A program made the translations under genes and the position numbers. The notes beneath the pieces are model-generated. The model did no database searches, had not been told where the DNA came from, and was given only the letters and a program-made list of their open reading frames with translations. Of a DNA stretch of 11,043 nt, positions 6,663-10,441 are shown piece by piece. This stretch comes from a virus. Numbering within the stretch: position 1 is the first letter of the stretch; each line of letters opens with the position of its first letter. The stretch lies in the UHGV virus genome UHGV-0098765; one strand, 5' to 3'.

Positions 6663-7355
6663 TTAATTGTGTCGCTTAAGGGTTTGTGACTGACTGATTA
6701 AGACCTTTCCAAAGACCATAAACCGGTGTTCGTTTTCGCTGGTAATTCCCCATTCGCGGTAAATCTGATTATCAGAAATTACCAGCAGTTTATCAGGTAT
6801 CATTTGCAGTCGTTTGACGTAAATTTTATCATCAAAACCAAATACATATATACCATCCCCATCAAACTGATTGATACTGATATCAACGAAGATAAGATCT
6901 CCTGGCTCAATGGTTGGACACATACTGTCCCCACGAACGTTGATAACTTTAATGTGATTTGCTGGTCGTCCACCAAACATCGATACAGCATTATCAGTTC
7001 TGTATTCAATGGCATGAATCACATCAATGACATCACCGCCCTGGATAAGGCCATTTCCCGCACTGGCACTGACATCCAGCATTTCAATACGGAATACATC
7101 CTTCACCTGCGCAACATCCTCACTAATACTGTTTTTACATACAGTATTACTTTTGAGGTCTGAGGTAAAGAGATCAGCAATATCAACACCTAAGCTCCTG
7201 GCAATATTACTCAGGGCTTGTTCAGTGAATTGTTTCTGCTTACCTGTTTCGAGGCGCGAGATATTCGCCGCATCCACTCCTATTGCTTCAGCGAGATCGG
7301 CGATTTTCATGTTCTTCGCCTGGCGAAGTTGTCTGACTCGATTTCCTATGTTCAT
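6663..7355 (-). CDS. CI-like prophage repressor (N-terminal XRE-type HTH, C-terminal S24 LexA-like peptidase domain; 230 aa)
   Basis: HTH region RVRQLRQAKNMKIADLAEAIGVDAANISRLETGK; candidate Ala-Gly cleavage site (SASAGNG); catalytic Ser in GDSMCPTI and Lys in KRL. Divergent from the cro-like gene; apparently leaderless, with -10 TGTAAT 6 nt before the ATG. Confidence 0.9.
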   Translation of the reverse strand: MNIGNRVRQLRQAKNMKIADLAEAIGVDAANISRLETGKQKQFTEQALSNIARSLGVDIADLFTSDLKSNTVCKNSISEDVAQVKDVFRIEMLDVSASAGNGLIQGGDVIDVIHAIEYRTDNAVSMFGGRPANHIKVINVRGDSMCPTIEPGDLIFVDISINQFDGDGIYVFGFDDKIYVKRLQMIPDKLLVISDNQIYREWGITSENEHRFMVFGKVLISQSQTLKRHN

Positions 7356-7452: not shown

Positions 7453-7713
7453 ATGCAATCACCATTACGGAATGTGCGTAAGGCGCACGGATTTACTTTG
7501 CAGCATGTTGCTGCTGGCGTTCAGGTCAATCCAGCGACGCTGAGTCGTATTGAAAGACTGGAACAAATTCCATCTATCGATCTTGCAGAACGTCTGGCCA
7601 ATTTTTTTAAGGGTGAAATCAGCGAAATGCAGATTCTTTATCCGGCACGTTTTCAATCTAGCCAAAACCAGAATGGGTTTAAACCACAGGAACAGGAGGT
7701 AAGCCGTGGGTAA
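7453..7713 (+). CDS. Cro-like HTH transcriptional regulator (86 aa)
   Basis: GGAGG RBS; XRE-type HTH (AHGFTLQHVAAGVQVNPATLSRIER); divergent from the repressor gene across the operator region. Confidence 0.8.
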   Translation: MQSPLRNVRKAHGFTLQHVAAGVQVNPATLSRIERLEQIPSIDLAERLANFFKGEISEMQILYPARFQSSQNQNGFKPQEQEVSRG

Positions 7714-8257
7714 GCATCATTGGAAAGTGGAAAAACAACCTGAGTGGTACGTGAAAGCTGTCAGAAAAACTATCGCGGCATTGCCTGGGGGTTACGCTGA
7801 AGCTGCTGACTGGTTGGATGTAACAGAGAACGCTTTATTCAACCGCCTTCGTGCAGATGGCGATCAGATTTTCCCGTTGGGATGGGCAATGGTTTTACAG
7901 CGTGCTGCTGGCAATCACCACATTGCGGATGCTGTCGCACAGTCTGCTGGTGGGGTGTTTGTATCACTTCCTGAAATTGAGGAAGTAGAGAACGCCGATA
8001 TCAACCAGCGCCTGCTGGAGGTCATTGAACAGATCGGCAGTTATTCAAAACAGATTCGTTCAGCAATTGAAGACGGGGTGGTGGAACCACACGAGCAGGC
8101 AGCAATTAACGACGAGCTGTACATGTCAATTTCGAAGCTGCAGGAGCATGCAGCACTGGTCTACAAAATCTTTTGCGCTCCAGAAAAGAGTGACGCCCGC
8201 GAGTGTGCAGCTCCGGGCGCCGTGGCGTTTTGTGTCTGTGGAGAAACTAACGCATGA
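7706..8257 (+). CDS. Putative CII-like phage regulatory protein (183 aa), function hedged
   Basis: GTG start at 7706 with AGGAGG 6 nt upstream, overlapping the cro-like stop by 8 nt. Position immediately after cro. No specific motif verified. Confidence 0.55.
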   Translation: MGKHHWKVEKQPEWYVKAVRKTIAALPGGYAEAADWLDVTENALFNRLRADGDQIFPLGWAMVLQRAAGNHHIADAVAQSAGGVFVSLPEIEEVENADINQRLLEVIEQIGSYSKQIRSAIEDGVVEPHEQAAINDELYMSISKLQEHAALVYKIFCAPEKSDARECAAPGAVAFCVCGETNA

Positions 8258-9405
8258 ACAGTTTAACGGCAAATAACCGTTTGTCGCAACAGCTGGTGGT
8301 CAGCGTGGCTGAACACCTGTTGTTACGGCATGAATGCAGATTACCAAATCACCTGGCTGTAAGTAACCACAGAGAACTTTACCTGACTGTGGGGGGCGAG
8401 TTGTGCAGGAACTTAACCGCTGGTTTCGTGACGGAAGAGGGCTTTATGTCCATGTTATTCGTTGGGAGCCAGAAACACAGCGCGTTATCTATCTTCGCAA
8501 AGACTACCCGCATGAGTGCTTTAGTCCTTTGTGGAAATTCAGGCGTGATTTTGTTGAGTGTGAAGGACCACCAACACATTGATTCTGCCATTCCGGGACG
8601 TTACACTATTCAGGCACCTTATAAAACGGGTGCCGGGCGTGGAAACCCGGAATTCACCAAAGCGCACAACCGCGCTCTTGCGGTTTTTTTGTGTCATGAG
8701 CAGCATTACGCCCAAATTATGGTGGGGCGTGCAGGGCCAACTTCGGTTGGGCCGGGTTCTTTGGTGACCGGTATTTCCACCCCTGTACGTCTCACCACCA
8801 ATAAGGTCGTGGAAAGCCTTGGTGGTGAGTTATTAAAAATCACCAAAGAGGCTGCCATCATGGCTACGATCCCAACCCTCACTCAACCTGAAATTGCCAT
8901 CGTTGATGGTCAGGCTGTTACTTCATCCCTGGCTGTTGCCAACTTCTTCTCCAAACGTCATGACGATGTACTGAAAAAGATCCGCACGCTTGAATGCTCA
9001 GCATCATTCACTGCCCGCAATTTTTCGGTGAGTGATTACACTGATTGCACAGGTCGCAAACTTCCTTGCTACCAAATCACACGCGACGGTTTTGCGTTTC
9101 TTGCTATGGGTTTCACGGGTAAACGTGCTGCCCAGTTCAAAGAGGCATATATCAATGCCTTTAACCAGATGGAGAAACAGCTTTCAAAGCCCTATGTACC
9201 GAGCGACGTTGCACATAACGCCAGCGTTCTCTGTTCCTACATTTCATCAATTCATCAGGTCTGGCTGCAGCAGCTTTATCCTATGTTGGCAAAAGCCGAA
9301 TCTCCGCTGGCTGTTAGCTTATATGACTATATTAATGATGCTTCGGCGCTGGCCTGCCTCATAAATTTGTCGCTGAACCCTTCAGAGGTAAGGGGGCGCA
9401 AATGA
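8254..9405 (+). CDS. Rha-family phage regulatory protein (Rha domain in the C-terminal half); alternative start at ATG 8840 gives a 188-aa canonical Rha protein
   Basis: ATG 8254 overlaps the CII-like stop (ATGA) with a GGAGAAA RBS, and the frame stays open for 383 codons. The recognisable Rha domain (VDGQAVTSSLAVANFFSKRHDDVLKKIR...YQITRDGFAFLAMGFTGKRAAQFKEAYINAFNQMEKQL) begins only after ATG 8840, which has its own AAAGAGG RBS. A terminator-like hairpin with a T7 run (8648-8670) lies inside the N-terminal part. Confidence 0.45.
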   Translation: MNSLTANNRLSQQLVVSVAEHLLLRHECRLPNHLAVSNHRELYLTVGGELCRNLTAGFVTEEGFMSMLFVGSQKHSALSIFAKTTRMSALVLCGNSGVILLSVKDHQHIDSAIPGRYTIQAPYKTGAGRGNPEFTKAHNRALAVFLCHEQHYAQIMVGRAGPTSVGPGSLVTGISTPVRLTTNKVVESLGGELLKITKEAAIMATIPTLTQPEIAIVDGQAVTSSLAVANFFSKRHDDVLKKIRTLECSASFTARNFSVSDYTDCTGRKLPCYQITRDGFAFLAMGFTGKRAAQFKEAYINAFNQMEKQLSKPYVPSDVAHNASVLCSYISSIHQVWLQQLYPMLAKAESPLAVSLYDYINDASALACLINLSLNPSEVRGRK

Positions 9406-9626
9406 TCCGGAATATTTTCAAACGGTTTACCAATCAGACCTTCCGTTGTCCTCGTCCGGGTCAGTGGTACACCACGCCTGCAGGGCATGTTCTACGTGTT
9501 AGCCTGGTTGACCGTGAATGTCAGAAAGTGATTTGTGAACCGCTGGGCCGTAATTACCGCGTCAGTATGCCGCTTATAGCATTTCGCTCTGGAAAAAACA
9601 TGAAGCATCTCGGAGGTGCAGCATGA
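9402..9626 (+). CDS. Hypothetical small Cys-containing protein (74 aa)
   Basis: ATGA overlaps at both ends (9402-9405 and 9623-9626), consistent with translational coupling inside the replication operon. Confidence 0.5.
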   Translation: MIRNIFKRFTNQTFRCPRPGQWYTTPAGHVLRVSLVDRECQKVICEPLGRNYRVSMPLIAFRSGKNMKHLGGAA

Positions 9627-10441
9627 GTATGGAGCTGATGGTTAAAGCGATGAAAATTCGAGTGGGTAATCCATTGCGAAAACTGGTTCTGATCAAGCTG
9701 GCTGATAATGCCAGCGATCAGGGTGAGTGCTGGCCCAGCTACCAGCATATTGCTGACCAGTGCGAGATTAGCAAACGTTCTGTGATGAATCATATTGCGG
9801 CCCTTTGTGATTCCGGGCTGGTAAAAAAAGTCACCCGGAAAGGTGAAAAAGGTAACTCAAGTAATATCTATCTCCTTCATCTTGATGGTGCAGGAGATTC
9901 ACTAGGGGGTAGTGCAAATGATTCACTATCTGGTGCAGCAAATTCACCAGGTAGTGCAGGAGTTGCACCAGGGGGTGGTGCAGGAGATTCACCCAGAACC
10001 AGTCACTCTTTTGAACCAGTCAATGAACCAGTCAATGAACCAATAGCTGTTGGTGCATCTGCTGATGAGTCTGTGCGAGTTCGTTCAAACCGACCGGAAT
10101 ACTCTCCGGAGTTTGAGCAGGCATGGCTGGCATATCCCAAACGTGCTGGTGGCAATTCAAAATCAGCGGCCTTCAAAGCCTGGAAAGCCCGTTTGAACGA
10201 GGGGGTAAACCCCGAAACCATGCTGGAAGGTGTGAAACGCTACGCGGGCTGGGTATCTGCGATGGGCAATAGCGGCACACAATTTGTGAAACAGGCTGTC
10301 ACGTTCTTTGGTCCGGATCGTCATTTCGAAGAATCCTGGGAAGTTCCTGCGGTATCTGCAGCTAGACGTGAGGACCCGTACTTCAAAGCCAGTTACGACA
10401 ACGTGGACTACAGCCAGATCCCGGCAGGATTCAGGGGGTGA
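9623..10441 (+). CDS. Replication initiator, lambda O-like organisation (N-terminal winged-helix DNA-binding domain, internal iterons, C-terminal domain; 272 aa)
   Basis: GGAGG RBS 6 nt upstream. N-terminus (LRKLVLIKLADNASDQGECWPSYQHIADQCEISKRSVMNHIAALCDSGLV) is replication-protein HTH-like. A low-complexity linker (GAGDSLGGSANDSLSGAANSPGSAGVAPGGGAGDSP) is encoded by a direct-repeat array. Confidence 0.75.
   Translation: MSMELMVKAMKIRVGNPLRKLVLIKLADNASDQGECWPSYQHIADQCEISKRSVMNHIAALCDSGLVKKVTRKGEKGNSSNIYLLHLDGAGDSLGGSANDSLSGAANSPGSAGVAPGGGAGDSPRTSHSFEPVNEPVNEPIAVGASADESVRVRSNRPEYSPEFEQAWLAYPKRAGGNSKSAAFKAWKARLNEGVNPETMLEGVKRYAGWVSAMGNSGTQFVKQAVTFFGPDRHFEESWEVPAVSAARREDPYFKASYDNVDYSQIPAGFRG
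9887..10036. repeat. Iteron array (putative prophage replication origin) inside the O-like gene
   Basis: Five direct repeats of a 16-bp unit RGTGCA-N6-TKCAC at 9887, 9911, 9932, 9953 and 9977 (spacing 21-24 bp), each with inverted GTG/CAC ends. Followed by tandem 12-bp GAACCAGTCAAT x2.6 at 10013-10044. Confidence 0.7.

Follow-up and report, generated by a model that had tools for sequence, protein, structure and literature searches.

A probable RNA immunity cassette of the P4 and P1 immI type, overlapped by a long open frame, in the early region of a lambdoid prophage

Background

In Salmonella Gifsy-1 most transcripts end at the terminator of the small RNA IsrK and the read-through RNA is translationally silent, while the short IsrK acts in trans to activate orf45 and, by coupling, the gene anrP (PMC4825925, Hershko-Shalev et al. 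2016). Both IsrK and a processed RNA downstream of it (STnc1160) were experimentally detected, and the authors noted the analogy with seqA and CI of P4 (PMC4825925). Activation of the read-through mRNA in trans and Hfq binding are known for the IsrK of Gifsy-1 only. Here we describe a related arrangement in the UHGV virus genome UHGV-0098765, in the segment between a CII-like regulator gene and a Rha-family gene, analysed within a stretch of 11,043 nucleotides (nt) that we refer to as the window. A first-pass annotation made from the sequence alone had proposed that this segment was an unusual 383-amino acid (aa) Rha fusion, a decayed or frameshifted gene, or a hidden small gene followed by a terminator like tR1 of lambda. 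We find it very likely that the segment consists of known elements arranged as an RNA immunity cassette of the P4 or P1 immI type, placed in the early-right operon of a prophage resembling e14, SfV and mEp460.

Results

Two structured RNAs upstream of the Rha gene

The main functional content of positions 8614-8859 are two structured RNAs, one isrK-like and one C4-like, which the first-pass annotation had overlooked. The features of this part of the window are as follows.

8579-8607, plus strand: putative promoter of the small RNA (analogue of PisrK and of PLE of P4), read from the sequence
8614-8690, plus strand: IsrK/P4 seqA-like small RNA (sRNA) of 77 nt (Rfam RF01394, 67.9 bits against a gathering threshold of 50, E 3.9e-13)
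8715-8802, plus strand: C4/P4 CI-like antisense RNA (Rfam RF01695, 83.6 bits against a gathering threshold of 45, E 1e-15)
8809-8859, plus strand: target region with a2 (8809-8815), GGTGGTGA (8821-8828) and b2 (8840-8849)
8860-9405, plus strand: Rha-family gene of 181 aa, a putative anti-repressor (Pfam Phage_pRha, PF09669, 5.2e-31, over residues 21-106)

The C4-like RNA matches its model over the full length (positions 1-87), has a b' loop at 8758-8767 (UCUUUGGUGA), a single-stranded a' at 8774-8780 and an AUG at its 5' end (8719-8721), and closes with a 3' end motif ...CACCACCA that is visible in the sequence. Exact complements to both loops are present in the window, of 10 nt for b':b2, 9 nt for b':b1 and 7 nt each for a':a1 and a':a2, and by duplex energy all four pairings beat most shuffled targets. 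The predicted b':b2 duplex (-20.3 kcal/mol) covers 8839-8855, and b2 itself overlaps the Shine-Dalgarno (SD) sequence AAGAGG (8846-8851) of the Rha ATG. The Rha domain has a start and a ribosome site of its own as had been supposed, with the ATG at 8860-8862 rather than at 8840, which is the first base of the b2/ribosome-site element.

In order to compare the cassette with its relatives we sampled C4 loci by a sequence-pattern scan of viral contigs, which gave 97 unique loci with 51 different b' loops, 29 a' variants and 65 distinct specificities; a looser pattern (GGGN4CTTCGGN4GCCGG) applied to genome contigs was too degenerate, returned mainly unrelated GC-rich genomes and was not used. Among the 65 specificities matches of at least 7 nt to the targets of the same locus were found for b2 in 78%, a2 in 95%, b1 in 68% and a1 in 62%, and only 1-2.4% matched when C4 loops were paired with the flanks of other loci. 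The targets lie at fixed offsets among the loci and b2 mostly ends in an SD-like GGA or GAGG. When 76 C4 sequences, that of the window among them, were aligned, 16 of the 25 predicted pairs carried compensatory changes; some of the inner positions had been fixed by the search pattern itself. Because of this loop/target co-variation, the fixed offsets and the compensatory changes, comparison of sequences indicates that the RNA cassette is real and under selection as RNA.

The sRNA is composed of two 5' hairpins, with a1 (8639-8645) in the loop of the second and b1 (8654-8662) in the linker that follows, and of an intrinsic terminator at 8668-8690, where a terminator scan matched 8668-8685 together with the T run. 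This is the hairpin AACCGC-gctctt-GCGGTT with its T run that had been described 20 nt further upstream, at 8648-8670, and as the terminator of an isrK-like sRNA it is not an analogue of lambda tR1. A tR1-like terminator with nut-type antitermination, set between cII and the downstream early genes, would account for an intrinsic terminator inside the early-right operon and for the boxA-like CGCTCTT in its loop, but it is very improbable given that the hairpin forms the 3' end of an isrK-family RNA preceded by a putative promoter geometry of its own, that the boxA-like heptamer is not conserved and that no boxB-like element was noted by eye, although no dedicated search for one was made. The terminator is moreover intrinsic and lies after cII, and the cro-like and cII-like genes share 8 nt (7706-7713). 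Since the two genes overlap there is no room between them for a nutR/tR1 region, and the sRNA terminator is therefore the sole notable intrinsic terminator-like site of the early-right operon within the window; under the RNA cassette model it may attenuate transcription from pR as well.

The likeness of CGCTCTT (8673-8679) to the core of lambda boxA is probably a coincidence, and a boxA/nut reading of it was rejected as the heptamer is not conserved in 1720a-02, cdtI, SfV and PhiR47.

The putative promoter consists of a -35 box TTGATT (8579-8584) overlapping the stop codon of the preceding small gene, a 17-nt spacer and a -10 box TACACT (8602-8607) ending 6 nt before the predicted +1 at G8614. 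This putative promoter has the geometry of the Gifsy-1 isrK promoter and is conserved in 7 phages, although it matches the consensus at only 8 of 12 positions.

A further element of the target region, TTGGTGGTGAG at 8819-8829, is the complement of one side of the closing helix of C4, namely its 3' strand (8791-8801); relatives and Gifsy-1 share its GGTGGTGA core. Such an alternative helix could free the 5' strand of C4 and with it AUG 8719.

The Rha-family gene and other cargo

The Rha-family domain scores 107.5 bits and the protein also matches anti-repressor families of PHROG. Positions 5-106 of the TIGR02681 profile align to residues 12-110 counted from ATG 8860, so that the profile match is consistent with an N-terminus at this codon. 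Started in frame at AUG 8719 the protein would have 228 aa, and the two forms would differ in the peptides MATIPTLTQPEIAIVDGQAVTSSLAVANFFSK for the short form and MVGRAGPTSVGPGSLVTGISTPVR for the AUG 8719 form. Elsewhere the downstream cargo is a Bro-N + P22_AR_C protein, an epsilon-type Derepression protein as in P4, a DUF6124 protein or, in Gifsy-1, AnrP; with the cargo differing among loci, the RNA module looks like an exchangeable controller of anti-repressor-type genes.

Comparison with P4, P1 and Gifsy-1

In the satellite phage P4 (NC_001609) the isrK model matches seqA and the C4 model matches CI, in the same order as in the window and likewise upstream of replication genes. A P4 ORF (open reading frame) of 199 codons begins with an ATG overlapping the stop of ORF88/vis (GCATGATGATG; GCATGA) and runs in the frame of the C4 AUG through PLE, seqA, CI and seqC to an in-frame ATG behind the seqC/b2 ribosome site, which has the SD CAGGAGG and opens a 65-aa ORF in a context (GAGGCTGCCATCATGGC) near-identical to that of the window. 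We take the two ORFs to be the nested eta/orf199 and kil genes of Forti et al. (J Bacteriol 1999), who are said to have found that transcription became insensitive to CI immunity through translation on RNA from the upstream promoter PLL. The systems differ in cargo, which is Rha (181 aa) in the window and Kil (65 aa) followed by epsilon in P4, and in the spacer between sRNA and C4 (24 nt in the window, 107 nt in P4); the long ORF of the window also overprints a DUF4222 gene, and the element that carries it is a lambdoid prophage whose cI repressor is a protein.

The anti-repressor operon of P1/P7 immI (c4-icd-ant1/ant2) shares with the window a C4 RNA whose a' and b' match flanking a1/b1 and a2/b2 elements, hypervariable loops that set the specificity and a b2 placed over the ribosome site of the first ORF. 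The window differs in having no icd-like ORF between C4 and the anti-repressor gene, in carrying an IsrK-type terminator after a1/b1 and in the embedding of the cassette in a lambdoid early operon. In P1 ant1 and ant2 are two in-frame anti-repressor starts, and the two Rha starts of the window resemble them in this. The C4 RNA of P1 immI blocks the ribosome site of icd/ant through a2/b2 and is matured by RNase P.

Gifsy-1 (NC_010392) shares the layout of the window, as the isrK, C4 and c4-a1b1 models match there in the same order directly upstream of STM2616/anrP. The two loci align at 76% column identity from the sRNA and its terminator over a 24-25-nt spacer to the C4-like RNA, a2/b2 and the anti-repressor-type gene, and the putative promoter has the same position and geometry. 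The published helix b-I corresponds to a1:a', the published pairs of G28 and G31 of IsrK with C162 and C159 of 'orf45' map onto a1:a' as well (PMC4825925), and the orf45 start (A107, AUG at +107) corresponds to the AUG at the 5' end of C4, at 8719 in the window. The orf45 stop overlaps the anrP ATG, whereas in the window the frame of AUG 8719 enters Rha without a stop; AnrP and Rha are unrelated in sequence, and the Gifsy-1 locus lies after the Q gene whereas that of the window lies between cII and the replication genes.

A DUF4222 gene upstream of the cassette

Between the CII-like gene and the sRNA lie two features.

8391-8396, plus strand: G6 run, 6 nt before GTG 8403, present as G6 in 24 of 25 relatives
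8403-8582, plus strand: DUF4222 gene of 59 aa with a GTG start (Pfam PF13973, 9.4e-14; phrog_1343, 1.6e-36)

The 59-aa ORF had been reported from GTG 8403 to the TGA at 8580-8582 and both its position and its sequence hold. It scores 51.1 bits with the DUF4222 profile (cut-off 27) and matches phrog_1343 end to end. Substitutions relative to the window fall mainly on its third codon positions in four comparisons: for the locus L134 (78% nt identity) they number [6,6,25] by codon position, for L224 (76%) [6,6,28] and for ST64B (90%) [1,2,14], with aa identities of 84%, 84% and 95% in the DUF4222 frame and of 52%, 43% and 74% in the long frame that overlaps it; the fourth comparison is with e14 (64% aa identity). 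As judged from these comparisons the ORF is a genuine DUF4222 gene, with its frame under purifying selection. A hidden small gene and a terminator had thus been rightly suspected here, and it is the assignment of the latter to tR1 that fails, as it belongs to the IsrK/seqA-like sRNA.

The G6 run at 8391-8396 had raised the possibility of a decayed or frameshifted gene, in which a slip would join the frame from 8254 to that of the 59-aa ORF. The position of the run immediately before this ORF and the likeness of G GGG GGC to a slippery heptamer would suit such an event, but a comparison with relatives, proposed earlier as a way to find insertions or deletions (indels) in the run, found its length unchanged in all but ST64B. 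ST64B has G5A instead of G6 and a frame-0 TGA two codons ahead of the GTG, so that a shift there would terminate at once. The homology of L134 and L224 begins precisely at the DUF4222 start codon, an ATG in these loci with a stop just before it, the DUF4222 gene of Stx2_14744 likewise has its own ATG preceded by a stop, and the length of 59 aa is that of the full PHROG profile. A slip at the run is the least probable of the readings that we weighed, and frameshifting or phase variation there was rejected on its invariant length and the ST64B sequence. Since the run is invariant in 24 of the 25 and a TGA follows it in ST64B, we read it as probably an SD-like ribosome site of GTG 8403 rather than a slippery or variable tract.

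In phages of Serratia, Providencia, Yersinia, Morganella and Pantoea DUF4222 is annotated separately, and there its stop codon shares bases with the start of the replication gene. The 74-aa ORF downstream of Rha in the window (9402-9626) is itself weakly DUF4222-like (BLASTP E 0.02 to the 59-aa ORF), and the DUF4222 protein of e14 matches phrog_1153 at 7e-07. Since in distant phages nothing separates DUF4222 from the replication gene, the isrK-C4-rha cassette may have been inserted between, or along with, paralogous small genes.

On the minus strand of 8379-8591 a 70-aa antisense ORF matches phrog_14536 at full length (1.6e-48), and this family appears to stem from genes that were called on the wrong strand of DUF4222.

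The long open frame from ATG 8254

Both RNAs and the DUF4222 gene lie within a single long frame.

8254-9405, plus strand: long nested open frame of 383 codons, coupled by ATGA to the ymfL stop
8258-8402, plus strand: spacer part of this ymfM-like frame, fast-evolving, with no codon periodicity and only two variants known

The coupling that had been noticed earlier is confirmed, as ATG 8254-8256 overlaps the TGA (8255-8257) of the CII-like gene (ACGCATGAAC), and so is the openness of the frame, which has no stop before 9405. It crosses the DUF4222 gene in the +1 frame, the putative promoter and both RNAs and then enters Rha in frame. In relatives it is open in 24 of 24, at 278-387 aa and with indels in multiples of 3, and in cassette-bearing lineages it opens into the anti-repressor gene, with 383-387 aa in the window type, 278 in SfV and 277 in Stx2_14744.

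The 383-aa Rha fusion that had been proposed is therefore present as an open frame, of the same design as ORF199 of P4, but it is highly improbable as a single conventional Rha-family protein to which the RNA matches and the 59-aa ORF would be incidental. It is so annotated in mEp460, cdtI, ST64B and some RefSeq genomes, and PHROG 821 and Pfam Ash match its N-terminal extension. These families sit exactly on the RNA genes, however, and the best Ash match is the CI RNA region of P4. The residues of 8254-8582 are unconstrained, and no purifying selection was detected on residues 1-200 of the frame, where substitutions fall on codon position 2 and aa identity is below nt identity; selection acts instead on the DUF4222 frame and the Rha profile begins just past ATG 8860. 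The compensatory changes in the RNA helices alter the encoded residues, and the counterparts of the two RNAs in Gifsy-1 have been detected by experiment (PMC4825925).

We initially regarded the long frame as a mere annotation artefact, a view that changed with the comparison to ymfM and P4 and with the avoidance of stops. In e14 of E. coli K-12 the ymfM frame, which overlaps DUF4222 in +1, has the ACGCATGAAC junction and the MNSLT start of the window, and the two DUF4222 proteins share 64% identity. The e14 frame ends after 112 aa, at codon 53 of DUF4222, and next to it comes the replication gene, without RNA cassette or Rha. Expression of ymfM causes SOS-type filamentation (bioRxiv 10.1101/2020.11.19.390815). 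By position the long frame is the counterpart of ymfM in e14 and of ORF199 in P4.

The overlap at e14 deserves mention in its own right. There ymfM (the division inhibitor SfiC, 112 aa; positions 1061-1419 of our record L253) overlaps the 59-aa DUF4222 ORF, whose frame is under purifying selection; current RefSeq annotates DUF4222 and not ymfM at this place, and in the published pBAD-ymfM experiment the two frames are not told apart. The SfiC division block might be due to the overlapping DUF4222 protein, or to both products.

Stops are absent from the long frame at places where the other frames have them. The 145-nt gap 8258-8402 has none in the long frame, with 4 and 3 in the other two, and across six diverged lineages (window, ST64B, e14/SfIV, Klebsiella, Eeyore and Pantoea), whose sequences between the cII-like stop and DUF4222 are unrelated, there are again none, with 1-6 and 3-4 in the other frames. 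For DUF4222 itself, where a search with the alignment returned only copies of 95-97% identity and the diversity was taken from tblastn on phage records, we considered the dipeptides at which a synonymous change can create a +1 stop. Lineages bearing ymfM have 0 stops at 40 such sites, with the safe codons CTT/CTC and GTT/GTC interchanging, in comparison with 5 stops at 19 sites in lineages without a ymfM ORF (Fisher p = 0.002). In cassette-less lineages the +1 frame always ends at DUF4222 codon 53 or 56 by means of rare codons (ATA|G, ATA|A, TTA|A, GTA|G, GTG|A), and cassette-bearing lineages are without this stop. In 87 diverse loci (-60 to +111) the C4-AUG frame contains 0.23 stops per locus versus 1.55 and 2.55 in the other frames, and 83% of the loci have it open from the sRNA through C4 to the target region, versus 2% and 6% for the others. 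Of 80 loci, 61 have their first start in this frame ahead of the sRNA, and in 32 of these 61 it overlaps the stop of an upstream ORF. Depletion beyond +112 in P4-like 'group B' loci was excluded as evidence because the downstream frame-0 ORF there appears to arise from reading a real epsilon-type Derepression gene in an alternative frame.

It is possible, if on the whole unlikely, that the elements are separate (DUF4222, two RNAs and a 181-aa Rha) and that the frame is open by chance, RNA constraint or ancestry, giving at most a short ymfM-like peptide. The long frame is without aa conservation, and under random synonymous recoding of DUF4222 the +1 frame stays open with P ~0.06 per lineage, which, like the ~0.09 obtained against ST64B, is not extreme. 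The isrK sequence of the window is stop-free in 2 of 3 frames, and some C4 loci have a stop in the frame shortly before isrK or within the cassette, 17% being not open over -127 to +100. Against this stand the safe codons that nine lineages keep at all sensitive sites while exchanging one synonym for another, the positionally conserved +1 stop made of rare codons, the stop-free unrelated gaps, and the strong depletion of stops in the C4-AUG frame even at hypervariable positions, with indels in multiples of 3; ymfM expression in e14 moreover has a phenotype and ORF199 of P4 has the same design. From these comparisons we infer that the long frame serves for the transit of ribosomes on pR transcripts rather than for a conventional 383-aa protein.

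Just past ATG 8254 an inverted repeat AACGG-N7-CCGTT (8264-8280) is kept in the E. coli and ST64B variants, where the next ~40 nt diverge strongly.

Proposed regulation of the cassette

The scheme that follows predicts promoter activity, RNA processing, a direction of regulation, an anti-repressor function of Rha and translation of the long frame. In a lysogen, or whenever the internal promoter fires, transcripts would start at about 8614 and most would end at 8690 as the 77-nt sRNA carrying a1 and b1. Read-through RNA would yield the C4-like RNA, whose a' and b' would pair with a2 and b2 and mask the Rha ribosome site; because b2 covers the SD of ATG 8860, translation of Rha would be blocked as in the P1 model. 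In cis a' and b' may pair instead with a1 and b1, as in 'structure A' of Gifsy-1, which is inactive. The short sRNA, when in excess, would titrate a' and b' and so open translation from AUG 8719 (228 aa), from AUG 8860 (181 aa) or from both. These first three steps, of sRNA formation, C4 masking and titration, draw on sequence, co-variation and homology to tested systems.

On transcripts from pR, ribosomes ending at the ymfL stop would re-initiate at ATG 8254 and, staying in frame 1, pass over the terminator and C4. Their transit would suppress both, with Rha and the replication genes then expressed regardless of RNA immunity, while transcripts from the internal promoter, having an untranslated leader, would stay under RNA control. 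That re-initiation and transit bypass RNA immunity in this way is suggested by the conservation of the frame and the P4 analogy, and we give it about an even chance. More tentatively, and with no more weight than we give to separate elements, the segment may hold three superimposed layers, namely the DUF4222 protein, a ymfM-like +1 frame, fused through to Rha in the window, that is indifferent to its aa sequence but selected to stay open, and two RNA genes, with the long frame acting as a ribosome track that melts the terminator and C4 on pR transcripts and so would free Rha and the replication genes from RNA immunity in lytic growth.

A number of points weigh against this interpretation of the locus. 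The putative promoter matches the consensus at 8 of 12 positions and fell below the threshold of the promoter scan, which did not call it. The c4-a1b1 model (RF03163) reaches 21.2 bits in the window against a cut-off of 46.7 (Gifsy-1 48.1, P4 44.1), although the a1/b1 complements are still exact. No sequence homology was found between the Rha of the window and AnrP of Gifsy-1, so that its anti-repressor role rests on family names. As to the long frame, the two variants of 8254-8402 have 76% nt and 68.5% aa identity, with substitutions of [7,12,13] by codon position, and aa identity in this frame is 43-74% where that of DUF4222 is 84-95%, without constraint at the protein level. The lineages compared at sensitive sites are related, and their counts are not phylogenetically independent. 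Openness in the comparison with ST64B alone, for which substitutions give P ~0.27 x 0.33 (~0.09), could be due to chance; the value is ~0.03 if a further 1/3 is assumed for a 6-nt indel in frame.

Genomic context and distribution

The window covers the immunity and early region of a lambdoid prophage, its type being that of e14, SfV, ST64B and mEp460, and a PerC-like gene is also present in its early region. The genes around the segment are as follows.

6663-7355, minus strand: S24 cI-like repressor gene
7453-7713: Cro-like HTH gene
7706-8257, plus strand: CII-like/YmfL regulator gene (Pfam Phage_CP76, 8.7e-16; NCBIfam phage_reg_YmfL, 2.9e-50)
9402-9626: 74-aa ORF downstream of Rha (phrog_1153, 1.3e-45)
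9623-10441: HTH_36/DnaD-like replication gene

Part or all of the segment is carried by 2948 of 5426 complete E. coli genomes, with at least 80% of it in 473, and 247 phage records contain it too, among them those of mEp460, SfV, ST64B, cdtI and Stx-converting phages. A tRNA search of the window found none, and an Rfam scan of it gave no isrJ match.

Some contigs contain two C4 cassettes less than 1 kb apart (for instance at 7051-7082 and 7920-7951 of L191) or two copies per genome, and Salmonella phage 118970_sal3 has a C4 cassette in two places. At about 1123-1150 of the window a strong G+C-rich hairpin lies between A and T runs (AAAACCCGCCTTCAGGCGGGTTTTTT); it gives partial, sub-threshold Rfam matches to terminator-containing families and is likely a bidirectional terminator.

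Annotation and significance

The components of the segment all come from described families, and its regulatory logic follows P4, P1 and Gifsy-1. Its database labels are inconsistent, ranging from a 383-aa 'Rha' protein to 'ash family protein', 'peptidase' and 'immunity region', and an RNA gene is annotated in none of the records examined. Pfam PF10554 ('Phage_ASH'), the PGAP name 'ash family protein' and the N-termini of PHROGs 821, 995, 3960 and 6928 coincide with isrK/seqA and C4/CI RNA genes, as seen at 8602-8893 in the window, at 8168-8584 in L344 (P4) and in L165 and other P4-like loci, and the RefSeq coding sequence (CDS) 'cI gene product / transcriptional repressor' of P4 likewise lies on an RNA gene. 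The best Ash score (111.7 bits) belongs to the translated a1b1-C4-a2b2 region of a P4-like locus. This coincidence indicates that Ash and several of the PHROGs are largely translated RNA genes whose conservation is that of the RNA.

The practical value of these results lies in the widespread mis-annotation that they bring out, in the placement of Ash, the 'cI protein' CDS of P4 and several PHROGs on RNA genes, and in the ymfM/DUF4222 overlap at the sfiC locus of e14. For the biology of these phages a cassette of the P4/P1/Gifsy type predicts a second layer of control over the induction of Shiga-toxin and other lambdoid prophages, acting through cross-talk between anti-repressors, the specificity of which would be set by the hypervariable loops.

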